From assembly GCA_021162615.1 (NCBI GenBank), contig JAGGYH010000025.1, forward strand, positions 26,364 to 90,363: a stretch of DNA of 64,000 nucleotides, given 5' to 3'. The notes under the pieces were generated by a model that was not told the DNA's origin, made no database searches, and saw nothing but the letters and a program-made list of their open reading frames with translations. Of this stretch, positions 1 through 42,275 are shown piece by piece (position 1 is the stretch's first letter; every line of letters begins with the position of its first letter). Source of the stretch: Candidatus Aminicenantes bacterium. Its GTDB lineage: Bacteria; Acidobacteriota; Aminicenantia; Aminicenantales; Aminicenantaceae. A program made the position numbers and the translations under genes.

Positions 1-444
1 GTTATTATGATAAATGATATTGTCTTTGTGCATGGCGGGATAAGCATCAAGTTTTCCAAGTGGAAATTAAGCGGCATTAATAATCGTGCTCGCTATGAAC
101 TGTCAGAGATTCAGAACGCACGTTTAAGCAACACTTCTCTTGCCATTGATTTTGAGATCGTTTTTCAAAGCGATGGTCCGCTATGGTATAGGGAACTGGC
201 AAGACAAGATGAGAAATATTTTAAAACAGAAGTGGATACCATACTAGAAAACCTGAAAGCCAGGGCAATGGTCATAGCGCATACTCCAAAAACAGGAATA
301 GCGGCTTCAGTTGAAAGCTTGAGCCGTTTTGATAAAAGATTATGGGTTATTGATACTGGGATATCAAAGGCTTACGGAGGGATTCTCAGCGCATTGATCA
401 TTAAAAACGGGGAATTCTTTGTATGGAGTGAGAACAATGAATAA
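1..444 (+). CDS. Metallophosphoesterase, Shewanella-like PPP phosphatase family (5' end cut by window edge)
   Basis: Frame is open to nt 1. The visible half carries VHGG, DGPLWYRE and AHTP blocks typical of PPP/Shelph-type phosphoesterases. The stop at 442-444 overlaps the next ATG at 437. Confidence 0.7.
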   Translation, partial: VIMINDIVFVHGGISIKFSKWKLSGINNRARYELSEIQNARLSNTSLAIDFEIVFQSDGPLWYRELARQDEKYFKTEVDTILENLKARAMVIAHTPKTGIAASVESLSRFDKRLWVIDTGISKAYGGILSALIIKNGEFFVWSENNE

Positions 445-1231
445 CATAAAAAATAGGTTCTTTTGTTTTCTGGGAATAGTCATGTTTGTCTCTGCATCAT
501 ATCCATTTACATATAAGCAGGAAAAATCACTTTTTCCTGAGGAAACCGAAAAATTTCTGTTAACAGCTGAAGTCGTTTCCATTGAAAAACATCTGGAAAT
601 TGGGAGAACAAATTTCTGGAAGGTGCTTCTTAATGACGGCAAAAAAGAACTCAAAGCTATTTTTAAATACGTCAACCGATCCAGACCCTCTCTTTTTTCT
701 GATAGCTACAAATATGAAATCGCAGCATATAAGGTCAATAAAATTCTGGGCATCAATCTCGTTCCCCCGGTTGTGGAACGAAAAATAAACGGACAGACCG
801 GCTCTCTTCAGATTATGATAGAAAATGTCCTCACAGAAAGGAATAGAAAAATTCAAAATATCGAACCTGAAAAACCAGATGTATTCAAAAACGATATTGA
901 TACGATAAAGATCTTTGAAATTCTTGTGAATGACCAGTGTAATGACAGTGAAGACATCTTGATCCAAAAGGATGACTGGAAAGTCTGGAGAGTGGACTTT
1001 TCCGAAGCATTTTCCCCTTCATCTGATATTTTACTCAAATGCAAAATAGAGCGCTGTCCCAAAATCCTCTATACTCGTCTTCTTGAATTAGATGAAAATG
1101 AGTTAATAATGCTGTTGGATTCATATTTGAATGAAAAAGAAATACATGCCTTACTGGAGAGAAAACAGTTAATTGTCAAAACTATTGACGAACTTATAAA
1201 ACAAAATGGTGAAAACCAGGTGCTTTTCTAA
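437..1231 (+). CDS. Exported PI3/4-kinase-fold (type II PI4K-like) protein, paralogue 1, catalytic loop degenerate
   Basis: ATG 437 is preceded by GGAG (425-428). Signal peptide MNNIKNRFFCFLGIVMFVSASY. Shares the YEIAAYK..LGINLVPP, GSLQ and WRVDFSEAF blocks with the ORFs at 1430 and 7280, but the DR(H/T)xxN block reads QCNDSED. Confidence 0.65.
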   Translation: MNNIKNRFFCFLGIVMFVSASYPFTYKQEKSLFPEETEKFLLTAEVVSIEKHLEIGRTNFWKVLLNDGKKELKAIFKYVNRSRPSLFSDSYKYEIAAYKVNKILGINLVPPVVERKINGQTGSLQIMIENVLTERNRKIQNIEPEKPDVFKNDIDTIKIFEILVNDQCNDSEDILIQKDDWKVWRVDFSEAFSPSSDILLKCKIERCPKILYTRLLELDENELIMLLDSYLNEKEIHALLERKQLIVKTIDELIKQNGENQVLF

Positions 1232-1429
1232 ATACCCTTTTGTTTGAATGCCCATTTTTTGTGCAGTTTATACTAATTCCAATCAAATCAGTTTTTTAAA
1301 AGAAATAACCGCATTTTTTCAACAGGTATTTGCACAGGAATGGTGGATAAATTCTTTGGTGCGTTTGACTTTTGTCTTCTTTATGTAGAAAATTTATATA
1401 ACAGAGATAAAGATAAGAGGAGGGTAATA

Positions 1430-2257
1430 ATGAACAAATTCCTGAAATTTATCTTTATAGTGATTTTTGTTTTTTCATCAGGCTTCCAAACCTTTGCCCA
1501 ATTCACCAACGAAGAAATAGCAAAAATGGAGGAATGGGAAGAATATTTAAAAACCGCTGAAATCACAGGCCATGAGCAAATGCAAAGCCGTGAAGCTGTA
1601 ACCAATCCCTATATCCTTCAGCTGGAAAAAAACGGAGTCGCACGGCAGGCCATATGGAAAAACCCGGAAGGACGTATGAGAGGGTATATGGAAGGCTGGA
1701 AATGGGAGATCGCCGCCTATAGATTGAACAGGTATTTAGGACTAAACATGGTCCCTCCGACTGTTGAAAAAAGATTTCAGGGAAACAGAGGTTCCTGCCA
1801 GCTCTGGATCGATGCCTGGATGAGCCTTAAAGACAAATATGAAAAAAAGATCCGTGTTCCTCCTATAAAGGTCCTTCACTGGAACAGAGCCCTTTATCTT
1901 CAAAGGGCCTTTGATAATCTTATAGCCAATGTGGATAGGCATCAAAATCAATATCTTATTACCGAAGACTGGCGCATGATACTCATCGATCATTCCAGAA
2001 GCTTCAGAACATCGAAACAATACACAACAAAGCTGATCTATGATGAAAAAAACAAACAAGGCTCGAGAACTATGAAAGAACTTCCCATAGAATTTGTTGA
2101 AAAACTTAAATCACTCGACTCCGAGGTTATAAAAAATGTGGTCGGTGAATATCTTACTGACAAGGAAATCGAAGCGGTCCTTCTCCGAAGAGATTTGATC
2201 ACGGACTGGATCAATAAAAAGATAGAAGAATTGGGAGAGGACAAAGTTTTATACTAA
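1430..2257 (+). CDS. Exported PI3/4-kinase-fold (type II PI4K-like) protein, paralogue 2
   Basis: GAGGAGG (1417-1423) lies upstream of ATG 1430. Signal peptide MNKFLKFIFIVIFVFSSGFQTFAQ. Ordered blocks: AIWKNPEG, WEIAAYRLNRYLGLNMVPPT, GSCQLWI, NVDRHQNQ (DRH = nt 1934-1942), ILIDHS (D = nt 1988-1990). Confidence 0.7.
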   Translation: MNKFLKFIFIVIFVFSSGFQTFAQFTNEEIAKMEEWEEYLKTAEITGHEQMQSREAVTNPYILQLEKNGVARQAIWKNPEGRMRGYMEGWKWEIAAYRLNRYLGLNMVPPTVEKRFQGNRGSCQLWIDAWMSLKDKYEKKIRVPPIKVLHWNRALYLQRAFDNLIANVDRHQNQYLITEDWRMILIDHSRSFRTSKQYTTKLIYDEKNKQGSRTMKELPIEFVEKLKSLDSEVIKNVVGEYLTDKEIEAVLLRRDLITDWINKKIEELGEDKVLY

Positions 2258-2404
2258 GCCGGGCTTTTTGACTGAAATGATTTCCAATCAGGGGATGCCG
2301 AATCCTTGGTTAATATCTTATCGAGTGTAAATACGAACAAATCAGCATCATCTTGAGTGAACACCAGAGGAGGTTCTATTTTTTAGCTGCGCAGAAAATA
2401 CAAA

Positions 2405-3370
2405 TCAATCCTCATCCTTTTCCTTCAGTATGTCTTCAGGTTTTTTCATAAGGCTCTCTGCTGTCCATTTAGTAATCAAAAAAGGATAATTGTTTTCAGA
2501 CGAAAGGGCAGGATATTTCTCTTCATCCTCCGCTTTTTCATAGATCCTCAGTTCATAGTCTTTGGCTCCTTTTGCCGTAATGGTATAGACAGGAGTCTTC
2601 AGATTTTCTTTTTCCTTTTCATCAAGAAATGAATCACAGTTTAGCCCTGATAATTTTGACAAAAGGGTATCTATCTTGCTCTTTTCCGCTTTTTTCCCGT
2701 CCTGTGACAGCCACGCCTCTTCTTCCCCAGGACTTGTTTCCTGCTCTTCCTGTTCTTTTTCAGGCGAAACAGGTATGATTTCTCTCTTGAGCTCAAGAGT
2801 CCCGAATTCACCTTTTAACGCCAATCCTGTTATTTCCTCTGCACTGAATTTCATAACAGACTTATCTCTGAGTCCTGATTTATTTTGTTCAAAAGTGCTT
2901 CTAAACGATTCATTGGCATGATAGACTTTCGCATCATCTGCTATCATTACATAGGTATGACTGTATGTAGACGACACCTTGCCTATATAAAACTCCCTAA
3001 GTGCGTTTTCTTTGTCAGAAGCTTTTATATGAATTCTGTTTTCTTTGTCTAATTCATATCTTTCATAATTTTTCTTATCCGAAACCAATTCGGTCAGCGT
3101 GAGATTTCTAATTACATCCAGCATATCATTCACTTTATCGTGATCAGCGATGTACTCCTCGGGCATTATCAACCAGTCTCCCTTGCTCCTTTCAAGCAAA
3201 ATGGACTCATCTCCTCTGTTGATTTCAATTCTACTCAAATCATCTGCATCAATCTTATCAAGCTTAGGGAGTTTATAAGACATTTTATTCCTACCGGTGC
3301 TGATAATAAGGACCACAACCAAAATAATGATGACAGCCATCAATACCATGTATTCTTTCTGTCTTTTCAT
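2405..3370 (-). CDS. DUF4340-like membrane-anchored protein (last gene of the GldG-type ABC operon)
   Basis: GGAGGAG lies 5 nt upstream of ATG 3370. Has a single N-terminal TM helix. Its position directly after a GldG-like gene is the usual DUF4340 context. Assigned by context and architecture only. Confidence 0.55.
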   Translation of the reverse strand: MKRQKEYMVLMAVIIILVVVLIISTGRNKMSYKLPKLDKIDADDLSRIEINRGDESILLERSKGDWLIMPEEYIADHDKVNDMLDVIRNLTLTELVSDKKNYERYELDKENRIHIKASDKENALREFYIGKVSSTYSHTYVMIADDAKVYHANESFRSTFEQNKSGLRDKSVMKFSAEEITGLALKGEFGTLELKREIIPVSPEKEQEEQETSPGEEEAWLSQDGKKAEKSKIDTLLSKLSGLNCDSFLDEKEKENLKTPVYTITAKGAKDYELRIYEKAEDEEKYPALSSENNYPFLITKWTAESLMKKPEDILKEKDED

Positions 3371-3386
3371 TGATCTCCTCCAGCTG

Positions 3387-5585
3387 CTATTTTTGTTTTG
3401 TAAAAACAGCTTTTATCATTTTTCTTCTGGCTTTCCGTCTGGCCCAAACCATAATCCCTATCATTATGAATAACGCAGGGAGACCCCCGATATTAAAGAC
3501 CTTAATAAAATTCCGTGTGATCGGCTTTGTATCTTTCAAGGGATTGAACTTCTGGTTTTTACTTCTCATAACAGCGATACCTTCCCTATTGTTTAAATAA
3601 TCAATGATGTTCAAAATGTACTGTGCATTGGGAGATTCTCCGTTTTCGTCAAGCAGATTGTCCTTTAATATCTCAGATGACCCCATTATAAATATCTTTC
3701 CAGGCCTTCCTCGTTCAATGACTTCTTTTTCTGTTTTGAACCGTGTCTCCTTTGTTTCATCTTTTTCCGGTTCGTCCTTGTCTCCAACGCTTTCTTCCTT
3801 TGGTTTCTCAGGGACCTCTTTGCCAGAAAAATAGCTTAAAAAGCTGCCTTCGGCAAGATAAGCCAAAGGATAACTTTTCATGGATTCACTGTCTGCAGGC
3901 GGCCTTATAAGCATGGGATTCAGATTGATTTGCCCGGACATTGTCCAGGACCTTCCGGAACTCGAAATCACTGGATTTAACTTAATATCTCTTTCCTTGA
4001 TTTTTTTCTCATCGGATGACAGCGGAGATACCTGTATCATAATGAGCTCTTTGATGTTTTTTAAAAAACTGAGCCTGTGATTGATGTTTTCATTTTTTAT
4101 GACAGGGGCAAAATAAATAGGTGTCTCTCCCATTCTCTGATCTCTGCTTACATAGCAGCTCTCGTCAAGCACATATGACTTTTCCACTTTTAGGCCGTAA
4201 TGATCCAATAATTTCCCTATACCTGTGTTAACCGGCATATAGAGCGGCTGTGACATCCCGTACATCTGGTTTTGTCCCTGCTGGGCCTGTTCAAAAGAAT
4301 CGAGAAAAAGGGCTAAAGATTTGCCTTTCATGAGAAACTGATCGATCTGGAAAAGCTCCCAGTCCGAAAATGTCTCCTTTGGCCCTGCAATGATAAGAGT
4401 GTCAATGCTTTCCGGAATCTCTTCGCTCTTTAAGTCAATCCTGTTAACGGAATAGTTTTCATTGATCAGCGAATTGAAATTATTCAAGGAACCTGTCTGC
4501 TGCTGCATTCCCTGAAGCTGGGGGGGGAGAGAATAAGATAAACCAAGGGTTAAATGAGATGTCAAATATCCGATTTCTTCATGAATATTAATAACATTAT
4601 CCACATTTTCCTCTATAAAAGCCTTTATGGTATCCTTTTCTATCAATGAAAACTGTTCTTCCAACCCCCTGCTGGTAAGGTTAAGGTTTCTGTCCAGCAA
4701 AGACCTTTCTACGGACCGGTCTTTGTATTCAATCCCTATGGCTGCCATTCCCTTGCCTGCTTCTATTATCTGCCCATCTGAACCCTCTATTTCCGGCCAC
4801 TGCAGCATAAACCGTTCATATCTTTTTAATTCCTCTTCGGAAATCTCATCCGTACTCGGGTCAATGTATACAAATTCCAACTGGTTATAGAGTTTTGTAT
4901 TGAGTTCAGATACAATATCATTCATTTCATCTGTTATGGTATCAAGCCCTTCCAGATTCACCTCCCTTGCAATATCATTCAGGGAAGATGATTTTATGAG
5001 ATTGACTTTTATCTTTTCTTCGAGGTTAAGAAGAGAAGATATCTTATCATTCATCTTCTGTATAGTGGTAGTAATCCTGTATTCCAGCTTCTCTGTAGAT
5101 GTTACTGCCGGTATCTTTTCCGTAAGGTCCCCGTGGATAAAGACCATCCCCATATAAGCCCTCTGCAGTTTAGCCTCATCCTGCTCTATTTTCTGGACAT
5201 TAACCGGGTATATGCCGTAATCCTGGGCTTTTCTGCGGTTTTCTTCCGCTTGTTCGCTCAAATCTCCCTCTTTTGCCGTTACATCAAAAAAACGATAGCT
5301 GAGATAATCATTGGCATAAAGAGAATAGGCATCCAAAAGGTCATGAAGATAAGACTCGATTGTATTATAGGGTGCGGGAAGATTCTTTGAAAAAAACACA
5401 TTTATCGTTAGAGGCTCTCTTAGAGTGGATACAGCTTGCTTGCTGGCTTTGGATAAAGAATAAAGATTGTTTTCAGTCAGGTCTATTCTGAAAAAAAACC
5501 TTAAGGCGACCAGGTTGATGAGTAAAGTAATTATAAAATACAGTCCAAATTTGTAATAATGAGATTTGTTTCTTATTTTTTCCAT
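3387..5585 (-). CDS. GldG-like ABC-transporter auxiliary component
   Basis: Large protein with N- and C-terminal TM anchors, located directly downstream of the ABC-2 permease. Start chosen at MEKIRNK (ATG 5585) to avoid overlapping the permease. Confidence 0.7.
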   Translation of the reverse strand: MEKIRNKSHYYKFGLYFIITLLINLVALRFFFRIDLTENNLYSLSKASKQAVSTLREPLTINVFFSKNLPAPYNTIESYLHDLLDAYSLYANDYLSYRFFDVTAKEGDLSEQAEENRRKAQDYGIYPVNVQKIEQDEAKLQRAYMGMVFIHGDLTEKIPAVTSTEKLEYRITTTIQKMNDKISSLLNLEEKIKVNLIKSSSLNDIAREVNLEGLDTITDEMNDIVSELNTKLYNQLEFVYIDPSTDEISEEELKRYERFMLQWPEIEGSDGQIIEAGKGMAAIGIEYKDRSVERSLLDRNLNLTSRGLEEQFSLIEKDTIKAFIEENVDNVINIHEEIGYLTSHLTLGLSYSLPPQLQGMQQQTGSLNNFNSLINENYSVNRIDLKSEEIPESIDTLIIAGPKETFSDWELFQIDQFLMKGKSLALFLDSFEQAQQGQNQMYGMSQPLYMPVNTGIGKLLDHYGLKVEKSYVLDESCYVSRDQRMGETPIYFAPVIKNENINHRLSFLKNIKELIMIQVSPLSSDEKKIKERDIKLNPVISSSGRSWTMSGQINLNPMLIRPPADSESMKSYPLAYLAEGSFLSYFSGKEVPEKPKEESVGDKDEPEKDETKETRFKTEKEVIERGRPGKIFIMGSSEILKDNLLDENGESPNAQYILNIIDYLNNREGIAVMRSKNQKFNPLKDTKPITRNFIKVFNIGGLPALFIMIGIMVWARRKARRKMIKAVFTKQK

Positions 5586-5595
5586 TCCAAACTCC

Positions 5596-6303
5596 TCATT
5601 TCTTTTCCTCAATAACCAGATTTGTTGCATACAGAGCAATGAATGAGAGTGAGAGAAAATAGATAATATCTCTCAAATCCAGGACTCCTTTGGCTATGTT
5701 CTGAAAGTGATGGCTGGCACTGAGATATTGAAAAAAGCCTATGAAAACATTAGGGATAAAAAACAAAACAAAATCAATCAATAAAGTGAGGCTGAAACAG
5801 ATGGCCATCCCTATGATAAAGGCTACCACCTGATTCCTTGTTAATGAAGACGCAAGCAGCCCGACAGCACTGAAACTGGCTCCTAAAAGTATGGCTCCGA
5901 AATACCCGCCTATAACCGGGCCCCAATCCAGGTCTCCGATCAAAGAAGTCGATACAGCGTACATCAATGTGGGGCTCAACATTATGGCTACAAATGCCAC
6001 TGCTGCAAAAAATTTTCCTAGGATAATCTCTCTAAAAGACAGAGGAAGAGTAATAAGAAGTTCATAGGAACCTATGTTGATTTCCTCTGAAAACAGGCGC
6101 ATGGTCACTGCCGGGATTATGAACGCGAAAGTAATGGGAAGAAGGGAAAAGAATTTTGTCAGATTTGCCTGCTTTTCAAGAAAAAAAGTGGAAAAAAACA
6201 ACCATCCTATGATGATAAGAAAAACTGAGATAACGATATAAGCAATAGGAGAAATAAAATAAGTCTTAAACTCTTTCCGGAAAATATGTTTTATGTTTTT
6301 CAT
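5596..6303 (-). CDS. ABC-2 type transporter permease
   Basis: Polytopic membrane protein (about 6 hydrophobic segments). Starts 1 nt after the ATPase stop. Confidence 0.8.
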   Translation of the reverse strand: MKNIKHIFRKEFKTYFISPIAYIVISVFLIIIGWLFFSTFFLEKQANLTKFFSLLPITFAFIIPAVTMRLFSEEINIGSYELLITLPLSFREIILGKFFAAVAFVAIMLSPTLMYAVSTSLIGDLDWGPVIGGYFGAILLGASFSAVGLLASSLTRNQVVAFIIGMAICFSLTLLIDFVLFFIPNVFIGFFQYLSASHHFQNIAKGVLDLRDIIYFLSLSFIALYATNLVIEEKK

Positions 6304-6304
6304 T

Positions 6305-7021
6305 TTAATTCCCTTTGGTTAATTTCATGAAAATATTTTCAAAGGATTCTTCCTTCATAGACTTCCTCAGTCCATCCAGAGTATCATCAGCCACTATCTT
6401 CCCTTTGTTGATAATAACAATCCTGTCACAAGTCGCTTCTGCTTCGCTCAGAATATGAGTGGAGTAAATAATGGTCTTCTCCCTTCCGATCCTTTTGATG
6501 ATTTCTCTTGTTTCCACGATTTGATTGGGATCCAATCCCGCTGTCGGTTCATCCAGAACCAGTATTTCAGGATCTCCCATCAACGCATGAGCGATCCCCA
6601 CTCTCTGCCTGTATCCTTTTGAGAGTTCATCAACGGTCATGTGCATGACATTGTTTAATCCACAGAGATCCCCGAGATTTTTTATATGATCTTGTTTTTT
6701 ATCTTTTTCAATGCCTCTTATATCAGCAACAAAATCCAGATAATCATAGACCAGCAGGTCCTTATAAATAGGAGCTGCTTCGGGGAGATAGCCTATTTTG
6801 CTCTTTATTTCCATCATATGATCATATATATTGTAATTCATGACTTCTATATTCCCGTGAGTCGGCTTTAAATACCCTGTGATAATCCTGTATATGGTCG
6901 TTTTTCCAGCTCCATTAGGTCCTAAAAGCGCCAGTATTTCACCCTTTTTGATATCAAAACTCACGTTGTCCACAGCACATAAATCACCGTAATATTTAGT
7001 CAAATTTTTTATTTTTATCAT
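6305..7021 (-). CDS. ABC transporter ATP-binding protein
   Basis: Walker A GPNGAGKT, signature LSKGYRQR, Walker B ILVLDEP. ATG 7021 is preceded by GGAGAG; the longer ORF start at 7033 has no RBS. Confidence 0.9.
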   Translation of the reverse strand: MIKIKNLTKYYGDLCAVDNVSFDIKKGEILALLGPNGAGKTTIYRIITGYLKPTHGNIEVMNYNIYDHMMEIKSKIGYLPEAAPIYKDLLVYDYLDFVADIRGIEKDKKQDHIKNLGDLCGLNNVMHMTVDELSKGYRQRVGIAHALMGDPEILVLDEPTAGLDPNQIVETREIIKRIGREKTIIYSTHILSEAEATCDRIVIINKGKIVADDTLDGLRKSMKEESFENIFMKLTKGN

Positions 7022-7165
7022 GCGTCTCTCCATTGTTATTTTACCTGGTCACTTCAATTTAACCAGCAATATCCCGGTTAAATCTTTGCTTATCAAGTTA
7101 ATTTTTATACAAAATCATCCGCTCTATGTCAATGGATGGTGAGATTTCGGATGGCACGAACGCAA

Positions 7166-7283
7166 TTAACCTGACCTATTCATAAAAAAATGGCGATGTA
7201 TAGGCAAGCCGATCTCACTGCATCTGCTTCGTTAGCTTAGCTCGCATCTGCTGCAACCTCGACTTGTTCATCATCCAGGTTAA
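7166..7283 (-). repeat. MITE-like repeat, short copy (End-B ... End-A)
   Basis: Begins TTAACCTGACCTATTCATAAAAAAATGGCGATG and ends GTTCATCATCCAGGTTAA. The terminal TTA (7280-7282) is the stop codon of the CDS at 7280-8101. Confidence 0.8.
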
Positions 7284-8101
7284 TAAAGGACTGCTTCCTC
7301 TCCTCTTTCTTTTATCATATCGTTCACTTCTTTTATAAGCAGCTTTTTTCTTGCCAGTACAGCCTCGATCTCATAGTAACCCAAATAATCTCCTACCGCT
7401 TCCTTAATACTGTCATAACTTAAAGACTTCACAGCCTCAACGAATTTTCTGGGAAGGGTTGGAAACAACATATTGCTTCTCATCCCATGCTTTCCATATA
7501 TAAGCTGGTCTGTATAGATCCTTTTTGTCCGAAAAGACCGTGAATGGTCTATCAATATAAGGCGCCAGTCTTTGGTATACCTTATGTTCTGCTGCGTTCT
7601 GTCAATATTGCCTATCAAGCTGTCGAAAGCTCTTGCAAGATAAATGGATTTTTGCCATTTTTCTTTCTTTTCATCCGGGACTTTGATTTCATTCTTCACT
7701 CTCTCCAGTTCATCCATCTCCAGCTCTATCCATAACTGAAGAGACCCTTTCCTCCCCCTGAATCTTCTTTCCACAGTAGGCGGGACCATTCCTAATCCCA
7801 ATAATTTGTCCATTTCATAGGCAGCAATCTCATATCTCCATTCATCCTTAAATCCTTTTTGGATTCCTTCCGGATTTTTCCATACTCCCATTTCCTCCCT
7901 GGGCCCGAGTCTCAAAAACAGCTTTTTCGGTTTAGTGATCCCTTCCCCGATGTCCTCATGGCTGATAATATCTGCGGATTTGAGAAAAATTTCCCACTTT
8001 TTTCTCTCTTTCACTTTGTCAATGTCCAGCTGAGGTCCTGCATGCAAAAAAAGACCTGTCAAAACGAATACAGAAAGTAGGGATATGCCTTTAATCCTCA
8101 T
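7280..8101 (-). CDS. Exported PI3/4-kinase-fold (type II PI4K-like) protein, paralogue 3
   Basis: GAGGGAGG lies upstream of ATG 8101. Has a signal peptide. Blocks: GVWKNPEG, YEIAAYEMDKLLGLGMVPPT, GSLQLWI, NIDRTQQN, ILIDHSRSF. Colinear with paralogue 2 over its full length. Confidence 0.7.
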   Translation of the reverse strand: MRIKGISLLSVFVLTGLFLHAGPQLDIDKVKERKKWEIFLKSADIISHEDIGEGITKPKKLFLRLGPREEMGVWKNPEGIQKGFKDEWRYEIAAYEMDKLLGLGMVPPTVERRFRGRKGSLQLWIELEMDELERVKNEIKVPDEKKEKWQKSIYLARAFDSLIGNIDRTQQNIRYTKDWRLILIDHSRSFRTKRIYTDQLIYGKHGMRSNMLFPTLPRKFVEAVKSLSYDSIKEAVGDYLGYYEIEAVLARKKLLIKEVNDMIKERGEEAVLY

Positions 8102-8176
8102 TTTCCTCCCTCATGTATTGTATCATTCTGTAACACAGACTCATTACAAAAAAGGATTTTTTTATAAATTGGTTTG

Positions 8177-8185
8177 ATTATACCA
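8177..8185 (-). promoter_or_regulatory. Extended -10 (TGgTATAAT) upstream of paralogue 3
   Basis: The reverse strand reads TGGTATAAT about 75 nt upstream of ATG 8101. The -35 is weak. Confidence 0.4.
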
Positions 8186-8220
8186 TAAAAAAAGACTATG
8201 CGTAAGAAGGCTGTGGAAGG

Positions 8221-8571
8221 TTAGTGTTTGGTCTGCATTCCCTCCCGCCAAACAGTAAATCCGTAATCTATGAGCTCTCTTTTCGTATCCTTGTCCAGTC
8301 CACTTAAATGAATACCTAATTCCATGCTCTCCTCATCTGAACTCACCCATCGGACCTGCCCTGAGACAAAAGGAGGAATCTTTTCCCCGGGCAAATCAAG
8401 CCTGATCTCTACTTGATCTCCGACCAATAACGTCCTTTGACCCGCTATGATTTTTAGTCCTTCTGAGGATATGTTCTTCACGGAAATTTTTTCAATTGAG
8501 CTGTTCTCAAACCTTGCTTCACCATAACAACTGCATCCGAAACGAAAATATTTTCTTCGTTCTCTTATCAT
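8221..8571 (-). CDS. PilZ domain protein (putative c-di-GMP receptor)
   Basis: RxxxR (RERRKYFRF) and N-x-S-x-x-G (NISSEG) motifs at PilZ spacing. Confidence 0.75.
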   Translation of the reverse strand: MIRERRKYFRFGCSCYGEARFENSSIEKISVKNISSEGLKIIAGQRTLLVGDQVEIRLDLPGEKIPPFVSGQVRWVSSDEESMELGIHLSGLDKDTKRELIDYGFTVWREGMQTKH

Positions 8572-8626
8572 AATTCACGCTCTACATCTATGAATTATCT
8601 ACTATATGTTGGACCTTTATTTCTAA

Positions 8627-8655
8627 AAGATACTTATTGTGGTGGCTAATGTCAA
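8627..8655 (-). promoter_or_regulatory. Sigma70-like promoter upstream of the PilZ gene
   Basis: The reverse strand reads TTGACA, a 17-nt spacer, then TATCTT. Confidence 0.4.
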
Positions 8656-8707
8656 GTCTTTGGCCTTCATTTTTCTCATTGTATCATTCCAAAGATTTCT
8701 CACTTAT

Positions 8708-8871: not shown

Positions 8872-11800
8872 CTATTTTTCTTCAGGAACTATGACCCCCG
8901 ATAATCCCTTCTCTTCTAAGAATAAATTAAATAAAAGCAGATCATCAGTAAGTATCTTTTTGAAAAGTTGTTTTTGCGCTTCCAGTCTTTTTTTCAGCAC
9001 AGCATGAACTTCTTTCTGCTGCTTATTCGGAGCAAAATCAACACTGCCGGCCAGATCTCCAGCTAAAACAGACAGCTTACAGTATAATTTATTGGGATAC
9101 CTGAAGGATTTTGAATCCCCCTCAGCCAATATAGGCTGGAAGAGTTCACCTTCAACCAAGCGCAATTTTTTGTCAAATTTTTCAATTTCTATGGCAATGT
9201 CCTTTTGTTTGCCTTTATTCAACATAGCCTTCAGATCATAAAGCTGCTTGCGCATCCATTCGATCTTATTTATCATTTCTGTGACAGAATCAAGGTCCTT
9301 TCGTACTTCCTTCTGCATATTCACTTGTTCTTTGATGTCCTCAATTGATCCTTCTGAATTCGGATCTTTAAGGATATTTAATTCTCGAGCAAACTCCTTT
9401 TCTCCTATAACAAGTTTAACAGAGTATTTTCCGGGAGCCGCAAGAAAACCTCTGAATCCTCCACCAGTGCCCCAGCTCAATATGGGATACCATCCCTCTT
9501 TTTCCCACAATTCAAGAAATCTTTTTTCTTCCACTACATGAGGATTTCCAGGGGGTTTTGTGCGGAGCTTTGCACTCTCGGCCGGATAGTGCCTCATATC
9601 CCACATCACTCGGTTTATCCCTGAATGATTGGTTCCGCTTATTTTATTGACTAAATCCCCTTCCCCGTCATAGATCTCTATTGTAACGCTTTGATTTTGC
9701 TTCTTCTTAAGGTAATAATCTATATAGGCACGCGGAAAGACCCGAGGGCCCCCAGCCTTACTATGGAGTCTGTAAGCTTTTCTTGGATTGAAAAAATGAA
9801 TATCGGATTCCAGCACTTCTTTATTCAACTGCTGTAAAGGAGATATATCGTCCATGATCCAGAATCCTCTCCCATATGTTGCGACCACAAGGTCATTAAA
9901 ATCTTTCTGGACGACCATATGATGGACAGGGGCATAAGGCAGATTATTCTGCAGGGACAGCCAGTTTTGACCGTTGTTAAAGGATACATAAATGGAATTT
10001 TCTGTACCCAAATAAAGCAGTCCTTTTTTCACAGGGTCCTCATTGATCCAATGAACATAACTGAAAACACTTTTTGGCAGATCCGAGCTTATTGATTTCC
10101 AAGTCTTCCCATAATCCTCTGTTACATAAACAAAAGGGTCCCGGTTGTTCATCTGGTGAAAGTCTATGGTCACATAAGCTGTTCCTGCACTGTATTTTGA
10201 AGGTTCGATATTACTTACCGTCCCCCATTCAGGTAGATCAGGTATGTTTTTTGTCACATTTATCCATGTTTTTCCGAAATCACGGGTCACATGCACGAGA
10301 CCGTCATTGCTTCCTGCCCATATGCACCCCTCTTCCACCGGAGATTCAGCAATGGCAAAAACACAGCATCCGTATTCCACAGCCAGGTTGTCTCGGGTAA
10401 GACCGCCAGACGGGCCCATTTTACTTTCATCGTTTGTGGTGAGGTCAGGGCTTATGACTTCCCAACTCTTTCCTCCGTCACTTGTCATATGCACGAACTG
10501 ACTTCCGGCGTAGACTTTGTTATGGTCATGAGGGGATATATGAATGGGAAAGGTCCAATTAAAACGGTATTTGACCGCAGCCGCATGAGCCCCATAAATG
10601 GATTCAGGCCAAACATGAACTGTGTTGATGTGGCCTGTTTTATAATTTGCTCTTTGAAGATCGGCATTATAGCTCCCCCCCCAGACTATATCGGGATCGA
10701 CTGGGTCTGGTATCACAAATCCGCATTCTCCGCCTGCTGTCGCTTCCCAGAGAGAATTATAGACTCCCCATCTGCCGAAAGAACCTGTACTAGGCCCTTT
10801 ATAGGCGCTTCCATCCTGACGCCCTCCATAAACATAATAGGGAAACTGATTGTCGACAGCAACGTGATACATCTGGCCAATGGGAAGAGTGACCCGTTTC
10901 CAGGATTTTCCTCTGTTAAGAGTGATCATCGCGCCTCCGTCATTGCTTATCATCATCCTATCTGGATTCTTAGGATCAGCCCACATATCATGACAGTCTC
11001 CTCCCCAGGGTACTGTTTCAGTGGTGTAGCCTCCGTTTAATGTTCTGCTCTGGCTGTTTGCTGCAAAATACACTTCATTCTCATCAGCAGGATTGACCAT
11101 GACCCGGGAAGCATAATGCGGTCTTTCATTTAGGAGCCTATTGTAACTTGCAATCTTCCAATGGCTGCCTCCATCATCAGATCTCCACAATACACCCCTG
11201 TTGGGATGGCCTGTTTCAATCAATGCATAGACAACATCCGAGTTGCTCTGGGCTATGGCTAACCCTACTTTCCCAATAGGAGGTTCCGGAAGCCCATTCC
11301 CTGAAAGACGATTCCAGGATCCCCCTCCATCCGTTGATTTCCAGATGCCTCCGTTTGGGCCGCCGCTTTCTCTTCCCCATGTTTTTATAACAAGAGGCCA
11401 CATACCCGCAAACAAAATTCGAGGATTATTCGGGTCCATAGCTATTTCAAAACAACCTGTGTTTTCATCCACAAAAAGGACATGTTCCCAAGTTTTTCCT
11501 CCGTCTGTTGTACGGAACACACCTCTTTCTTTCTGCGGCCCATAACAATGCCCCATAGCAGCTACGAAAACAATATCAGGGTCTCTCGCATCTATGACGA
11601 CTCTCCCTATTCTTCCGGTCTTATCAAGCCCCATATGCTTCCACGTCTTTCCCGCATCTGTAGATTTATAAACTCCGTTTCCAATAGAAATATTGCTCCG
11701 GACAAATGCTTCTCCTGTTCCTGCCCACAGCACATTCGGATCAGATGGAGCTATTGCTAACGCGCCTATTGATTGGACTTTCTGGTCATCAAAAATAGGC

Positions 11801-12066
11801 TCCCAATGCTCTCCTGCATCGGCTGACTTCCATATCCCGCCTGATGAGGCTCCAATATAATAAACAAGCGGATCCCCCGGAACTCCCACCACAGCAGAGG
11901 TGCGGTTTCCCGGAGGGCCTATATATCGGTAGCGAAGAACACGGTACACATCAGGGCTTATTGTCTGAGTATATGCCTGTGAAATCAAAACGAAAAACAG
12001 AATAACTCCTGCACAAAAAAGTAAAAATTTCCTTTTTTCCATCCCTTTTTTGATTGAATAAACCAT
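8872..12066 (-). CDS. Exported BNR/Asp-box repeat protein (sortilin/VPS10-like beta-propeller)
   Basis: AGGAGG RBS and a signal peptide. At least 8 SxDxGxTW-type repeats (STDAGKTW, TTDGGKTW, STDGGGSW, TSDGGKSW, TEDYGKTW and others). Confidence 0.8.
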   Translation of the reverse strand: MVYSIKKGMEKRKFLLFCAGVILFFVLISQAYTQTISPDVYRVLRYRYIGPPGNRTSAVVGVPGDPLVYYIGASSGGIWKSADAGEHWEPIFDDQKVQSIGALAIAPSDPNVLWAGTGEAFVRSNISIGNGVYKSTDAGKTWKHMGLDKTGRIGRVVIDARDPDIVFVAAMGHCYGPQKERGVFRTTDGGKTWEHVLFVDENTGCFEIAMDPNNPRILFAGMWPLVIKTWGRESGGPNGGIWKSTDGGGSWNRLSGNGLPEPPIGKVGLAIAQSNSDVVYALIETGHPNRGVLWRSDDGGSHWKIASYNRLLNERPHYASRVMVNPADENEVYFAANSQSRTLNGGYTTETVPWGGDCHDMWADPKNPDRMMISNDGGAMITLNRGKSWKRVTLPIGQMYHVAVDNQFPYYVYGGRQDGSAYKGPSTGSFGRWGVYNSLWEATAGGECGFVIPDPVDPDIVWGGSYNADLQRANYKTGHINTVHVWPESIYGAHAAAVKYRFNWTFPIHISPHDHNKVYAGSQFVHMTSDGGKSWEVISPDLTTNDESKMGPSGGLTRDNLAVEYGCCVFAIAESPVEEGCIWAGSNDGLVHVTRDFGKTWINVTKNIPDLPEWGTVSNIEPSKYSAGTAYVTIDFHQMNNRDPFVYVTEDYGKTWKSISSDLPKSVFSYVHWINEDPVKKGLLYLGTENSIYVSFNNGQNWLSLQNNLPYAPVHHMVVQKDFNDLVVATYGRGFWIMDDISPLQQLNKEVLESDIHFFNPRKAYRLHSKAGGPRVFPRAYIDYYLKKKQNQSVTIEIYDGEGDLVNKISGTNHSGINRVMWDMRHYPAESAKLRTKPPGNPHVVEEKRFLELWEKEGWYPILSWGTGGGFRGFLAAPGKYSVKLVIGEKEFARELNILKDPNSEGSIEDIKEQVNMQKEVRKDLDSVTEMINKIEWMRKQLYDLKAMLNKGKQKDIAIEIEKFDKKLRLVEGELFQPILAEGDSKSFRYPNKLYCKLSVLAGDLAGSVDFAPNKQQKEVHAVLKKRLEAQKQLFKKILTDDLLLFNLFLEEKGLSGVIVPEEK

Positions 12067-12083
12067 TAAACACCTCCTAAATA

Positions 12084-12953
12084 TTATTTATGTATTGCTT
12101 GTTGCGGATTATAAATATAACCCAGCAGTTTGTAAATCAACTTTGCAGCTAGAAAATCAGGAGCTTTGTTTTTAACATCAGGACACAGTTCCACAACATC
12201 AAAGGCTATGATCTTCTTGTTCTCCGCGACTTTTTTTAACAGGGCGAGCACACTGTACCATCCCAGCCCTCCCGGCTCTGGAGTTCCTGTGCTCGGCATC
12301 AGAGAAGTCTCATACACATCCACATCAATGGTGATATAAACATTTTGTTCAAGCTTGTCAACCGCATCCTGGACCCATTCATCATTATCATGAATATCCT
12401 TCGCCAGAAATATCTGATCCCAGTCGACCACTTGGCTTTCTTCCTCTGAAATGCTTCTTATCCCCACCTGAACAACAGGGCACATTTCTCTGACCCTTGC
12501 CATAACGCATGCATGGTTGTAGGGACTTCCCTTGTAGCTGTTTCTTAAATCAGTATGGGCATCCAGCTGAAGGACTGAAAAATCCTTGTGCTTCTTTTTT
12601 AAAGCTCTAACAAGCCCTGTGGTGATGGAATGCTCCCCTCCCAGCATGACTATAAATTTATCCATATGTTTTTCTGCTTCATATTCAACCTTACGGATAA
12701 CCGTTTCAGGATCATCGCCTTCTTTCACATCCATATGAGGCAAGGTATGGATTCCTAACGTATAGACACGGCTGTCGGTCTCTATATCATACAGTTCCAA
12801 ATATTCAGACGCCTCTATGATCGCATCAGGACCTTTGGAAGAACCCCTGACCCAGGAGCTTGTCCCGTCATACGGAACAGGCATTATCAAAATCTCTGAC
12901 TCTTGATAGCTGGCATGCTTTTTTTTGCTCAAACCTCCGAACTGCTTTATCAT
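12084..12953 (-). CDS. Agmatinase/ureohydrolase family protein
   Basis: Arginase-fold metal motifs GGEHS, DAHTDL, DVDV. Its start overlaps the upstream stop (ATGA). Confidence 0.85.
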   Translation of the reverse strand: MIKQFGGLSKKKHASYQESEILIMPVPYDGTSSWVRGSSKGPDAIIEASEYLELYDIETDSRVYTLGIHTLPHMDVKEGDDPETVIRKVEYEAEKHMDKFIVMLGGEHSITTGLVRALKKKHKDFSVLQLDAHTDLRNSYKGSPYNHACVMARVREMCPVVQVGIRSISEEESQVVDWDQIFLAKDIHDNDEWVQDAVDKLEQNVYITIDVDVYETSLMPSTGTPEPGGLGWYSVLALLKKVAENKKIIAFDVVELCPDVKNKAPDFLAAKLIYKLLGYIYNPQQAIHK

Positions 12954-16275: not shown

Positions 16276-16626
16276 GATTTTATCTCCATTCCTTGGATTC
16301 ATTCGAAAACTTCATCCTTTTGAATATTTTATAATATCCTTTTTTTATTTTCACTTCCTTCATATAATCCATTTATCCAGGTTCTTGAATCTTGTCTAAC
16401 AGATTTTCCTTAAATATAAAGTCATTCCCCGCCGTCTTTAAAAACACATCCATAGGAGCCACCTCAAATTCCTGTCCTAACCGGTCACGGATTGATTTAA
16501 CCCGGGTGATATCGCTCCATTCTCTCACATGAATGAGTAAAAAATAAGGACATATTCAGTATATTTTTATCAAGAAACCATACGATTTGCAATAAATCCC
16601 TGAAAAAGACTTAGGGGTATCCAGAG

Positions 16627-16712
16627 TGCCGGAGGGGGGAGTCGAACCCCCACTCTCTGTGAGGAGAACTGGATTTTGAGTCCAGCGCGTCTGCCAATTT
16701 CGCCACTCCGGC
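16627..16712 (-). tRNA. tRNA-Leu (anticodon CAA)
   Basis: Hand-folded cloverleaf: acceptor GCCGGAG/CTCCGGC, anticodon arm CTGGA-CTCAAAA-TCCAG, long variable arm, T arm GGGGG-TTCGACT-CCCCC. CCA is not encoded. Confidence 0.9.
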
Positions 16713-42235: not shown

Positions 42236-42275
42236 CTTCCTCTATATTTTCTTATTGGCAGCGGTTTAAAAAAAG

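Follow-up and report, generated by a model that had tools for sequence, protein, structure and literature searches.

The window, a 64,000-nucleotide stretch of Candidatus Aminicenantes DNA, opens with the 3′ part of a metallophosphatase gene followed by two kinase-like paralogues, A and B (Table 1). A third paralogue, C, lies ~5 kb from B on the opposite strand, an orientation left unstated in the earlier note that first singled out these ORFs. The operon between B and C encodes a DUF4340 protein, a GldG-like ABC_transp_aux protein, an ABC-2 permease and an ABC ATPase, according to the Pfam labels of the near-identical loci L001 and L002. Its conservation between B and C is confined to the window's own lineage (L001~L005, L009 and L010), and it is regarded only as context of the module described below.

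Table 1. Features at the 5′ end of the window and motifs of the three paralogues
Feature	Position	Strand	Basis or detail
Shelph-type PPP metallophosphatase, 3′ part	1..444	+	147 codons; translation, Pfam, PDB relative
Start/stop overlap ATGAATAA (A ATG and phosphatase TAA)	437..444	+	8 nt; sequence read
Paralogue A ORF	437..1231	+	264 aa
Predicted Sec-type signal peptide of A, MNNIKNRFFCFLGIVMFVSASYP	437..505	+	direct reading
A, AIFKY	656..670	+	Lys retained
A, YEIAAY	713..730	+	Glu retained
A, NDQCNDSED	929..955	+	degenerate catalytic loop
A, VDFSEAF	992..1012	+	metal-loop Asp retained
Paralogue B ORF	1430..2257	+	275 aa
Predicted signal peptide of B	about 1430..1501	+	direct reading
B, AIWKN	1649..1663	+	Lys77
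B, WEIAAY	1703..1720	+	Glu93
B, NVDRHQNQ	1928..1951	+	catalytic loop; Asp169 at 1934..1936
B, IDHSRSF	1985..2005	+	metal loop; Asp187 at 1988..1990
Four-gene ABC export-type operon	2405..7033	-	window ORFs
Paralogue C ORF	7280..8101	-	273 aa
C, IDHSRSF	7532..7552	-	metal loop
C, NIDRTQQN	7586..7609	-	catalytic loop
C, YEIAAY	7817..7834	-	
C, GVWKN	7874..7888	-	
Predicted signal peptide of C	at 8101 end	-	direct reading

The phosphatase ORF covers the C-terminal 147 residues of the protein, with DGPLWYR, AHTP and VIDTG in its translation, whereas the 5′ half lies outside the window. The full-length protein, taken from the ~98% identical contig L001, consists of 350 residues and contains the motifs GDIHGD, GDVLDRG and GNHE in addition to a signal-like N-terminus. 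The best solved relative is the Shewanella psychrophilic phosphatase I (PDB 1v73 and 2z72, E = 5e-36), in line with the previous assignment to the Shewanella-like phosphatases. As previously described, the ATG of A at 437 overlaps the phosphatase stop codon at 442..444. This 8-nt overlap, together with a GGAG 9 nt upstream, indicates that the phosphatase and A are translationally coupled.

A, B and C each begin with a basic n-region, followed by a hydrophobic stretch and a cleavage-like site of small residues (MNNIKNRFFCFLGIVMFVSAS/Y, MNKFLKFIFIVIFVFSSGFQTFA/Q and MRIKGISLLSVFVLTGLFLHA/G, respectively). GGAG or GGAGG precedes each ATG (GGAGG for B and C). These features agree with the signal peptides predicted previously for all three. 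Among the orthologues, 38 of 43 of the A type (scored for a hydrophobic N-terminal 12-mer), 80 of 81 of the B type and 54 of 55 of the C type have a hydrophobic N-terminal segment, and almost every one of 150 family representatives has one too. Representative P0232 bears a twin-arginine signal (RRRQFLK), and P0182, P0223 and P0263 have lipoboxes. Moreover, natural phosphatase-A fusions lack the internal hydrophobic segment of A and keep the N-terminal one alone. As called by a hydropathy heuristic and sequence reading, these patterns support the predicted export of A, B, C and the phosphatase.

Fold and catalytic motifs of the three paralogues

A shares 31% identity with B and with C, 53 columns are invariant among the three, and one family HMM matches them all at 1e-91 to 4e-95, confirming that they are paralogues. 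Foldseek search with the AlphaFold2 model of B (pLDDT 94.8, pTM 0.90) returned Fam20 structures as all of the top 15 matches (E ~1e-9, TM-score 0.61~0.65), and that with the model of A (pLDDT 91.2) returned Fam20C or Fam20A as all of the top seven (TM-score 0.64~0.67). The strong matches of both models are kinases without exception. Judged from these models, the fold is kinase-like, rather than the non-kinase fold that the earlier note had allowed for.

A family profile built from 109 sequences was searched against PDB sequences and aligned over both lobes with FAM20A (3.4e-15), Fam20C (3.7e-11) and Fam20B (3.1e-9), compared to 1.2e-3 for PI4K2B and 0.03 for PI4K2A. The query-normalised TM-scores are likewise 0.61~0.67 for Fam20 versus 0.48~0.51 for PI4K2. 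The profile aligns FK(P), EIAA(F/Y), NxDR and (I/L)D(H/N)(S/G)R(A/G)F, and places both Asp as well as the Lys and the Glu on those of Fam20. By both sequence profile and predicted structure, the nearest relatives are the Fam20 secretory kinases, clearly closer than PI4K2, which comes second. The paralogues had been read as type II PI 4-kinases; the kinase-like fold and the motif resemblance stand, but the branch does not. At the level of Pfam, the phosphatase matches Metallophos (6.7e-14), C scores 12.7 bits against PF00454, below the cut-off of 27.1, and the window proteins (15.3 and 12.0 bits) stay below the Fam20C threshold of 26.8 bits.

B and C possess the complete catalytic set and look catalytic, resembling exported Fam20-like kinases. 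In B the catalytic loop is more conserved than the rest of the domain (identity 0.79 versus 0.66, 82 orthologues), and so it is in C (0.86 versus 0.61, 55 orthologues). Asp187 is conserved in 107 of the 109 representatives and the DR pair in about 80%. By contrast, the N(V/I)DR(H/T)Q.. of B and C is replaced in A by NDQCNDSED, with DRxxxN absent, and the metal loop of A reads RVDFSEAF instead of LIDHSRSF (VDFS versus IDHS), its other blocks being AIFKY, YEIAAY..LGINLVPP and GSLQIMI. Conservation among A-type orthologues is lower in the catalytic loop (0.36) than in the remainder of the domain (0.48), the reverse of B and C. A thus retains the Lys and Glu of the nucleotide site and the metal-binding Asp; given the loss of the catalytic loop, it looks like a catalytically dead, exported Fam20-fold protein, an apparent pseudokinase.

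The five motif blocks once ascribed to all three ORFs hold for B and C, except that B departs from N(V/I)DR(H/T)QxN at its last position (NVDRHQNQ); the two Asp codons of B had been placed correctly. A does not follow the pattern in its catalytic and metal loops, and the lost catalytic loop of this phosphatase-coupled paralogue had been missed.

Conservation of the module and its neighbours

The kinase-like family comprises 4,669 unannotated clusters at 50% identity, and its named members belong without exception to Acidobacteriota, including Aminicenantes. The phosphatase gene is found in 33 of the 40 Aminicenantes loci that have enough upstream DNA. Of 36 split phosphatase/A-type gene pairs in Aminicenantes loci, 34 overlap or abut, and six further loci encode both in a single ORF; a kinase-like gene that directly follows the phosphatase gene or is fused to it is always of the A type. 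In most Aminicenantes the C-type gene directly precedes the B-type gene, both lying on one strand. In addition, about 17 of 22 long representatives are fusions of Metallophos and kinase-like domains, and a search with one fusion as query yielded at least 120 full-length fusions of 650~830 residues in other Acidobacteriota, named only “metallophosphoesterase”. The conserved synteny in Aminicenantes and the many gene fusions show that kinase-fold and phosphatase genes form a genuine, recurring module, bearing out the co-occurrence anticipated earlier; the Aminicenantes synteny could in part be due to common descent and not to selection. The literature searched yielded no description of a module of this kind, which the earlier note had likewise not recognised as described.

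The Lys of the FK motif is replaced by Arg or Gln in many non-Aminicenantes subfamilies, which is unusual for active kinases. At locus L164 the fused gene has glycosyltransferase and epimerase genes as neighbours, in 12 loci the B-type gene is followed by genes for APS kinase and ATP sulfurylase, and at some loci the module genes form operons with Omp85 or TonB-dependent receptors.

Many relatives carry a TLC/NTT-HEAT transporter gene directly beside the module, in at least three different gene orders. The adjacent transporters score 52.9~62.6 bits against PF03219 TLC (cut-off 21). A TLC gene lies in 42 of 80 Aminicenantes loci; among non-Aminicenantes loci of at least 8 kb, 14 of 27 have one. 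About half of the longer loci elsewhere lack it, and no TLC-like ORF was found in the 64-kb window or in the 8 kb upstream. Against the NTP/NDP-exchanger model TIGR00769 the adjacent transporters reach only 48~80 bits compared to a cut-off of 387, and they are members of the uncharacterised NTT-HEAT clade, with putative nucleotide transport. The periplasm is not, to our knowledge, known to contain ATP. The TLC ATP/ADP-transporter family is a concrete candidate for the supply of the phosphate donor, a question raised in the earlier note, in many relatives but not in the window.

A proposed extracytoplasmic phosphorylation cycle

Kinase-like and phosphatase genes, often fused, beside an ATP/ADP-transporter-family gene in related Acidobacteriota suggest a hitherto undescribed extracytoplasmic phosphorylation system, and the 5′ end of the window would be part of this conserved cell-envelope module of Acidobacteriota (here class Aminicenantia). 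We propose that B and C are kinases that use a nucleotide triphosphate to phosphorylate a protein or glycan of the envelope, and that the phosphatase takes this phosphate off again. A shares the fold of B and C and probably also their substrate-binding surface. It may act as a subunit that targets or regulates the phosphatase, and perhaps also as an allosteric partner for B and C, in the way that Fam20A is for Fam20C. Where present, the TLC-family transporter might bring cytoplasmic ATP out and periplasmic ADP in to fuel the kinases, which would parallel the ER/Golgi ATP import for Fam20C; this source of the donor would apply to the relatives, the lineage of the window being without a nearby transporter gene. 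The fold and the synteny beneath this model are established, whereas the chemistry, the substrate and the ATP export are our reading of them; taken as a whole, we consider it moderately probable.

An unlikely alternative is that no kinase-fold protein transfers phosphate, all of them being non-catalytic binding or sensor domains (e.g., for a nucleotide or phospho-ligand) that target or regulate an exported phosphatase engaged in phosphate scavenging or in dephosphorylating envelope components. The clear degeneracy of A, the Arg or Gln in place of the FK lysine in many subfamilies, the phosphatase as the sole annotated domain of the fusions, the lack of a known periplasmic ATP pool and the missing transporter gene near the window locus would all suit it. 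However, the catalytic loop and the metal-binding Asp are the most conserved parts of B and C, and Asp187 and the DR pair are widely kept among the representatives, a pattern that fits catalysis rather than mere binding; moreover, catalytic-looking B and C are kept beside a degenerate A, suggesting that the two states differ in function, and the TLC adjacency suggests nucleotide supply. It is rather improbable that B and C are catalytic but not protein kinases, either phosphorylating a glycan like Fam20B, in which case the phosphatase would take off a transient phosphate as envelope polysaccharides are assembled, or performing another nucleotide-dependent transfer, such as the AMPylation and glutamylation carried out by some atypical kinase folds. 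In animals, Fam20B adds a transient phosphate to xylose and a dedicated phosphatase takes it off, a precedent for the glycan variant; Fam20B (PDB 5xom and 5xoo) ranks among the top matches by both sequence and structure, and the glycosyltransferase/epimerase neighbours at L164 and the APS kinase and ATP sulfurylase genes point in the same direction. Nevertheless, glycan-synthesis genes are not consistently associated across loci, Shelph-type PPP enzymes are known as protein phosphatases, and sequence does not tell sugar from protein acceptors.

That the paralogues are type II PI4K-like lipid kinases acting on an envelope phospholipid or lipid-linked intermediate is, in our view, very improbable. 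PI4K2 is indeed next-best after Fam20, PF00454 gives weak matches of up to 24.9 bits in relatives, and the NxDRNxGN loop of most family members resembles the NTDRGNDN loop of PI4K2; but the PF00454 cut-off is never reached, and Fam20 is nearer by 8~12 orders of magnitude in E-value and about 0.15 in TM-score, an advantage that spans both lobes and the C-terminal helices. The Cys-rich palmitoylation motif is also absent from the family, and the fold similarity leaves the substrate class unfixed, Fam20B being a sugar kinase and Fam20C a protein kinase. We give hardly any credence to a cytoplasmic module using ordinary ATP, in which the N-terminal segments would be mis-called starts or cytoplasmic helices. 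The heuristic nature of the export calls and the helix modelled by AlphaFold2 for the N-terminal segment leave some room for it; against it stand the signal-like pattern in nearly every orthologue and representative, the strong Shine-Dalgarno sites upstream of the proposed ATGs, the twin-arginine or lipoprotein signals of some members, the internal hydrophobic segment dropped upon fusion behind the phosphatase, and the operons with Omp85 or TonB-dependent receptors.

Among known systems, the proposed kinase/phosphatase module most resembles Fam20 (PF06702), the best match by both profile and structure. In animals, Fam20C is the Golgi casein kinase, Fam20B a xylosylkinase and Fam20A a pseudokinase. 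Both families share the motif order FK(P), EIAA(F/Y)..L..VPP, F(D)xLIxNxDR and (L/I)D(N/H)(G/S)R(G/A)F and the C-terminal helices, have N-terminal secretion signals (predicted here) for action outside the cytosol, and combine catalytic members with a degenerate paralogue, although A is degenerate in the catalytic loop and Fam20A in the αC Glu. Compared to the solved Fam20 chains of 385~440 residues, the bacterial domain is only about 250 residues long (target-normalised TM-score 0.42~0.52), and with 0~1 cysteines it lacks the Fam20 disulfide pattern. Furthermore, the bacterial proteins are coupled or fused to a phosphatase and often adjoin a TLC transporter gene, neither of which is known to us for Fam20. 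PI4K2A and PI4K2B (PF00454) belong to the same superfamily, with a similar motif order and alike catalytic (NxDRxxxN) and metal ((I)D(N/H)(G/S)) loops; however, the similarity is far weaker (E 1e-3 to 3e-2, about 200~250 aligned columns), and PI4K2 is a cytosolic, palmitoylated eukaryotic lipid kinase without a signal peptide. The best match in the curated bacterial library is the uncharacterised, PI3/4-kinase-like SCO1664 family of actinobacteria (TIGR03843), which aligns over most of the domain with A, B and C (E 7e-9 to 3e-12) and the fusion P0261 (7e-15), but at 35~55 bits against a cut-off of 172.4 these are not members.

The phosphatase has all the PPP core motifs and the C-terminal (V)ID(T)G and (A)HT motifs of the Shelph enzymes (Shewanella phosphatase I, plant SLP1/2 and Plasmodium SHLP1), yet differs from them in being coupled to, or in relatives fused with, a Fam20-fold domain, an architecture for which no description was found in the literature searched. 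NTT-HEAT and NTT-HEAT-cNBD transporter fusions have been described in free-living bacteria, with no functional context reported (Major, Embley & Williams 2017, PMC5381601). The adjacent transporter genes of the relatives share the MFS/TLC + HEAT architecture, and at one locus the transporter gene is followed by a cNMP-binding gene, reminiscent of NTT-HEAT-cNBD; the exported kinase/phosphatase neighbourhood is a new context, the window itself having no such gene. Finally, the bifunctional PFK-2/FBPase-2, PPIP5K, AceK and HPr kinase/phosphorylase are all cytoplasmic and, except for the kinase-like AceK, unrelated in fold. What the module has in common with them is only the logic: a phosphate writer and an eraser in one polypeptide or operon, whose pairing sets the steady-state level of phosphorylation.

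Gene arrangement and the phosphatase

The start of the window holds the 3' part of a phosphatase gene followed by two of the three kinase-fold paralogues, A and B, whereas the third, C, lies on the opposite strand beyond an operon of DUF4340, GldG-like, ABC-2 and ABC-ATPase genes. Direct reading revealed ATGAATAA where the start codon of A (ATG) meets the phosphatase stop (TAA), and a GGAG or GGAGG stands upstream of the proposed ATG in each of A, B and C. A single family HMM matches all three at about 1e-91 to 1e-95; A shares 31% identity with B and likewise with C, with 53 invariant columns in the alignment of the paralogues. At each N-terminus, a basic n-region precedes a hydrophobic core, and a small-residue site follows. 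The five motif blocks that the earlier note assigned to all three ORFs are complete in B and C, but A has NDQCNDSED at the position of N(V/I)DR(H/T)Q.. and RVDFSEAF at the position of LIDHSRSF.

The locus of this lineage is rearranged, and the position of the operon between B and C is conserved only here (related contigs L001-L005, L009 and L010). The tRNA and Rfam scans of the window identified two tRNAs as its sole RNA genes, both far from the locus. Promoter and terminator scans of positions 1-8700 gave the same counts as shuffled sequence and were uninformative on operon structure.

Coordinates of the genes at the locus, of the RNA genes in the window and of example genes from related contigs (L-numbers)
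Feature	Sequence	Coordinates	Strand	Remarks
Phosphatase gene, 3' part	Window	1 to stop 442-444	+	147 codons; frame open from base 1
ORF A	Window	437-1231	+	ORF call
ORF B	Window	1430-2257	+	ORF call
DUF4340, ABC_transp_aux (GldG-like), ABC-2 permease, ABC ATPase	Window	2405-7033	-	Four-gene operon between B and C
ORF C	Window	7280-8101	-	ORF call
PilZ-domain protein	Window	8221-8571	-	116 aa; downstream of C; label from near-identical L002
Exported Sortilin/VPS10-BNR repeat protein	Window	8872-12066	-	1,064 aa; label from near-identical L002
Arginase-family gene	Window	12084-12953	-	Label from near-identical L002
tRNA-Leu(CAA)	Window	16626-16712	-	tRNA/Rfam scans
tRNA-Gly(CCC)	Window	42275-42348	-	tRNA/Rfam scans
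Phosphatase gene, full length	L001	7965-9017		350 aa
Propeller lipoprotein	L039	8164-9000	-	Example
RsbW-like HATPase_c_2 protein (c2)	L014	10823-11251		Example
STAS-domain protein (c5)	L074	4683-5030		Example
Peptidase_M14 gene	L165	14467-17118		Example; 883 aa
TLC-like gene	L168	5540-6833	-	Split over three frames

The missing 5' half of the phosphatase gene was recovered from L001, a contig whose DNA is ~98% identical to the window where the two overlap. The full-length orthologue begins with a signal-like N-terminus (MKTNRCIFSLLIISFVALFAVPSLQSF) and contains the PPP core motifs GDIHGD, GDVLDRG and GNHE, all in the half that lies off the window, and the window part contributes the C-terminal bacterial-like PPP motifs DGPLWYR, MVIAHTP and WVIDTGIS. 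Comparison with the PDB identified Shewanella psychrophilic phosphatase I (PDB 1v73, 2z72 and 2zbm) with E-values of 5e-36 to 9e-36, followed by Rhizobiales-like phosphatase 2 at 9.5e-5. The reading of this protein as a Shewanella-like PPP phosphatase (Shelph), made in the earlier note from the visible half, is supported because the protein passes Pfam Metallophos and the Shewanella enzyme is by far its best solved relative. The same note had asked whether the upstream half carries an export signal; judged by the L001 orthologue, the phosphatase appears to be exported as well.

Fam20-like fold and three family types

In Pfam, none of A, B and C had a match above threshold, and the weak matches to Fam20C, HipA_2 and PI3_PI4_kinase alone left the family undecided. 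Against Fam20C (PF06702, gathering cut-off 26.8 bits), B scored 15.3 bits, C 12.0 bits and A had no match; against HipA_2 (PF20613, cut-off 27 bits), C scored 13.5 bits. The PI3_PI4_kinase profile (PF00454, cut-off 27.1 bits), which the earlier note had proposed for the paralogues, matched C at 12.7 bits, A and B not at all, and relatives at 16.7-24.9 bits. Matches to the uncharacterised SCO1664 family (NCBIfam TIGR03843, cut-off 172.4 bits) were also sub-threshold, at 37.2 (A), 46.6 (B) and 35.4 bits (C), and the domain is modelled in neither Pfam nor NCBIfam. One 671-aa relative (representative P0122), which has kinase-like domains in two or three tandem copies, is the only member seen above the cut-offs of Fam20C (29.4 bits) and HipA_2 (29.8 bits), but the latter match covers only ~50 residues around the catalytic loop.

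Searches against PDB sequences were more discriminating, and even a profile built from the paralogues alone selects Fam20B, Fam20A and Fam20C. The family profile, built from a 109-sequence alignment, matched FAM20A (E=3.4e-15), Fam20C (3.7e-11 and 4.3e-10), Fam20B (3.1e-9) and C. elegans Fam20 (5.7e-7), with PI4K2B (1.2e-3) and PI4K2A (0.03) ranking after six Fam20 sequences. The alignments to Fam20 span both the N-lobe and the C-lobe in addition to the C-terminal helices, pairing A.FK of the family with KAMFKP, EIAAY..L..VPP with EIAAFHLDRILDFRRVPP, FDxLIxNxDR with FDFLIGNMDRHH and IDHSRAF with LDNGRGF. Structural similarity search using Foldseek with the AlphaFold2 model of B (pLDDT 94.8, pTM 0.90) revealed that the top 15 PDB matches are all Fam20, with E-values of 1e-9 to 5e-8 and query-normalised TM-scores of 0.61-0.65. 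For the model of A (pLDDT 91.2, pTM 0.85), the top seven are all Fam20, including the pseudokinase Fam20A, with query-normalised TM-scores of 0.64-0.67. PI3K and PI4K chains follow, PI4K2B with a TM-score of 0.48-0.51. Among known kinds, the Fam20 kinases of the secretory pathway come nearest to A, B and C, and the type II PI4Ks come second. Of the type II PI4K placement in the earlier note, the kinase-like fold stands, whereas PI4K2 yields to Fam20 as the closest relative by both profile E-value and TM-score.

Four residues of Fam20, the Lys of FKP, the Glu of EIAAF, the Asp of NxDRHH and the Asp of LDNGRGF, are aligned and present in B (K77, E93, D169 and D187) and in C, where the set is likewise complete; the Fam20 residue identities were taken from HMMER alignments and background knowledge. 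By contrast, A lacks both the Asp and the Arg of the catalytic loop (NDQCNDSED) and is therefore a pseudokinase-like member. The Aminicenantes members fall into three orthologous types corresponding to A, B and C. The A type has FK, YE(I/L)AAY, a highly variable loop and R(V/I)DFSEAF; the B type has WKN, WEIAAY, LIANEDRHQNQYLI and LIDHSRSF; the C type has WKN, YEIAAY, LIANEDRTQQNIRY and LIDHSRSF. Identity within the catalytic loop versus the rest of the domain is 0.36 versus 0.48 in the A type (~20 of the 109 aligned representatives), 0.79 versus 0.66 in the B type and 0.86 versus 0.61 in the C type. This conservation signature of the A type is one of apparent loss of catalysis, with the fold, Lys, Glu and metal-loop Asp kept.

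The family is large. When 1.84 billion cluster representatives were searched exhaustively with HMMER, 4,669 clusters matched at E≤1e-3, of which 701 reached E≤1e-30, and a word-indexed search with B returned 3,461 proteins. The named matches are all 'hypothetical protein' or 'metallophosphoesterase', and all belong to Aminicenantes or other Acidobacteriota (Terriglobia, Thermoanaerobaculia, Bryobacterales and Acidiferrales). A profile search with a 16-sequence alignment returned close Aminicenantes orthologues only; a wider range was sought with a second alignment, searched against metagenome contigs. By a hydropathy heuristic and reading, signal-like N-terminal segments occur in A, B and C and in almost all of the 150 best representatives, with a twin-arginine motif (RRRQFLK) in P0232 and lipoboxes in several (P0182, P0223 and P0263). 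Some database titles disagree with this distribution: L052, titled 'Candidatus Hydrothermarchaeota archaeon', has a C-B pair and motifs identical to those of L051, an Aminicenantia contig of the same study, and is probably mis-binned, and many clearly Aminicenantes MAGs (among L003-L082) are titled 'uncultured Eubacteriales bacterium'.

Coupling to the phosphatase and neighbouring transporters

Twenty-two of the 150 representatives reach 500 aa or more, and in ~17 of these a signal peptide is followed by GDxHG, GDxxDRG and GNHE and then by a C-terminal kinase-like domain; Metallophos was confirmed in the six long representatives tested. Such a fusion (P0261) used as query retrieved at least 120 full-length relatives of 650-830 aa with PF00149 as the sole annotated domain. 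Hundreds of 'metallophosphoesterase' entries carry an unrecognised kinase-like domain of ~280 aa. Most fusions from outside Aminicenantes have a canonical NxDRNxGN loop, which makes the ancestral state look like an active kinase fused to a phosphatase; the Aminicenantes appear to have duplicated the genes and subdivided their roles.

The synteny with the phosphatase, for which the earlier note had suggested a survey of other genomes, is recurrent. Sequence reaches 6.5 kb or more upstream of the B-type gene in 40 of 80 Aminicenantes loci, and 33 of those 40 contain the phosphatase. The kinase-like gene directly after it is always of the A type. Of 36 split pairs, 34 have this gene overlapping the phosphatase stop or at most 43 nt away from it; in six further loci the two form a single ORF. 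The split A genes have their own signal peptide and the fused forms lack an internal hydrophobic segment, and therefore both states are genuine. The possibility that the split is a frameshift artefact of a fused gene was rejected, given ~36 independent split assemblies in which A has its own signal peptide. Another envelope-linked arrangement of kinase and phosphatase is found at the P0194 locus (JGI 3300071358), where genes for a TPR protein, a kinase-like protein, an Omp85-family protein, a 532-aa unknown protein and a Metallophos protein lie on the same strand, and an ECF sigma factor and FecR come next.

The commonest other neighbour in Aminicenantes is a gene of the TLC (ATP/ADP-transporter) family, with 76 genes in 42 of the 80 loci. 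These pass Pfam PF03219 at 52.9-62.6 bits against a cut-off of 21 and come in two forms, of ~465 aa or of ~830 aa with HEAT repeats. A typical layout reads TLC, TLC, STAS / phosphatase, A / TLC, propeller lipoprotein / C, B / RsbW-like ATPase. Loci beyond Aminicenantes show the association too, with the genes ordered in other ways: the fusion followed by TLC-HEAT (L089, L091, L095, L096, L099, L103, L106, L107, L129 and L165/L166), a convergent pair of kinase gene and TLC, with the phosphatase next (L094, L115 and L125), or TLC-HEAT, a cNMP-binding gene and the fusion with overlapping starts (L164). Precomputed labels give PF03219 and HEAT in L164, L165 and L166. Among the 27 non-Aminicenantes loci of at least 8 kb, the transporter is present in 14 and the phosphatase in 16. 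A profile from the Aminicenantes neighbours found no TLC-like ORF in the 64-kb window, and the 8 kb that precede it in L001 have no such call. In L168, the TLC-like gene located 3.2 kb from the fusion, on its upstream side, may be a pseudogene or reflect indel errors of a long-read assembly.

The neighbouring transporters score 47.7-79.8 bits against the NTP/NDP exchanger model TIGR00769, below its cut-off of 387 bits, and by their domain architecture are assigned to the NTT-HEAT(-cNBD) clade. Major et al. 2017 (PMC5381601) describe this clade as common among free-living bacteria, with no function known, and their text mentions neither kinases nor export.

Other recurrent neighbours (DUF3313, TonB-dependent receptor, Peptidase_M14, SdiA-regulated-like propeller, STAS, RsbW-like ATPase, APS kinase plus ATP sulfurylase) are lineage-restricted and give no consistent substrate clue in either the Aminicenantes or the wider loci. 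The RsbW-like protein follows the B-type gene in 49 Aminicenantes loci and the STAS-domain protein precedes the phosphatase in 22; proteins of both kinds are partner-switching components. Near the module in Aminicenantes, Hanks-type Ser/Thr kinases bearing TPR repeats are common as well. A ~280-aa lipoprotein with SdiA-regulated and phytase-like β-propeller domains, located between the TLC and C-type genes in 27 loci, could be a partner or substrate. In 12 Aminicenantes loci (L036, L037, L040-L044, L059, L063, L069, L073 and L077), the APS kinase and ATP sulfurylase genes of PAPS synthesis lie convergent and directly after the B-type gene, which may be coincidence or hint at a link to sulfation or activated-nucleotide metabolism. 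The Peptidase_M14 gene follows the fusion and TLC-HEAT on the same strand in L096, L103, L129 and L165/L166.

A candidate extracytoplasmic phosphorylation system and its known relatives

The general view places regulated ATP-dependent phosphorylation in bacteria in the cytoplasm alone, because no ATP supply is known in the periplasm. We tentatively propose, as possible rather than probable, that Acidobacteriota possess an ATP-fuelled system of extracytoplasmic phosphorylation, in which NTT-HEAT transporters exchange ATP and ADP, Fam20-like writers act on envelope proteins or glycans, and a Shelph joined to a kinase or pseudokinase acts as eraser. For the individual genes, the most likely way of working is as follows. 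The transporter would swap cytoplasmic ATP for periplasmic ADP across the inner membrane; B and C would phosphorylate an extracytoplasmic substrate; the phosphatase would remove the phosphate that they put on; and A would target or regulate the phosphatase and might activate B and C too.

Several other readings of the family compete with this proposal. A cytoplasmic location would give the module ordinary ATP; the signal-like N-termini of the paralogues and the phosphatase, together with the twin-arginine motif and lipoboxes of relatives, argue for export. A lipid kinase would suit the PI4K chains that come second to Fam20 in sequence and structure. The type II PI4Ks have a Cys-rich palmitoylation motif, CCPCC, and a cytosolic membrane association, whereas no such motif is found in A, B and C, which carry putative N-terminal export signals instead.

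The paralogues might also be purely non-catalytic binding modules. The main internal warning against classical kinase chemistry throughout the family lies in the FK lysine, in the column of B residue 77 aligned to the Lys of Fam20 FKP, which is Arg or Gln in many non-Aminicenantes subfamilies. The Arg variant reads AIFRD, and the Gln variant reads AHIQT, with FNIAAY replacing EIAAY. These subfamilies still keep NxDRNxGN and IDHTRAF, and in B and C the catalytic set is complete and the catalytic loop is more conserved than the rest of the domain. A glycan kinase, or another nucleotide-dependent transferase, is a further rival. Fam20 enzymes themselves phosphorylate secreted proteins (S-x-E) or xylose, in a reaction dependent on Mn2+ and ATP.

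What lends the proposed phosphorylation system its interest is the combination of a large unannotated family with predicted export signals, whose closest kin are animal secretory kinases, with a tied phosphatase and, repeatedly, an adjacent gene of the ATP/ADP-transporter family. Since writer, eraser and candidate fuel line are all named, extracytoplasmic phosphorylation becomes directly testable. A first functional context is also offered for the NTT-HEAT transporters of free-living bacteria. Should the proposal be true, this long-uncharacterised clade would gain a function, and the family would represent a prokaryotic relative of the Fam20 kinases of animals, and perhaps their source; the component parts come from known superfamilies, and the system-level reading would be new for bacteria. 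In literature of incomplete coverage, we found no description of exported bacterial Fam20-like or periplasmic Fam20-type kinases, of Shelph-kinase fusions or of a link between NTT-HEAT transporters and kinases.

The solved Fam20 chains have 385-440 aa versus a mature domain of ~250 aa here, ~150 residues shorter, with target-normalised TM-scores of 0.42-0.52, and the disulfide pattern and extra segments of Fam20 have no counterpart. A, B and C are not formal Fam20 members, as they miss the Pfam cut-off, are shorter and have zero to one cysteines (one in B, none in C). The proposed system as a whole would be a bacterial counterpart of the eukaryotic secretory-pathway kinases. Within it, A on one side and B and C on the other may form a natural kinase/pseudokinase pair, a striking parallel, though a parallel only, to the pseudokinase Fam20A and the kinase Fam20C.
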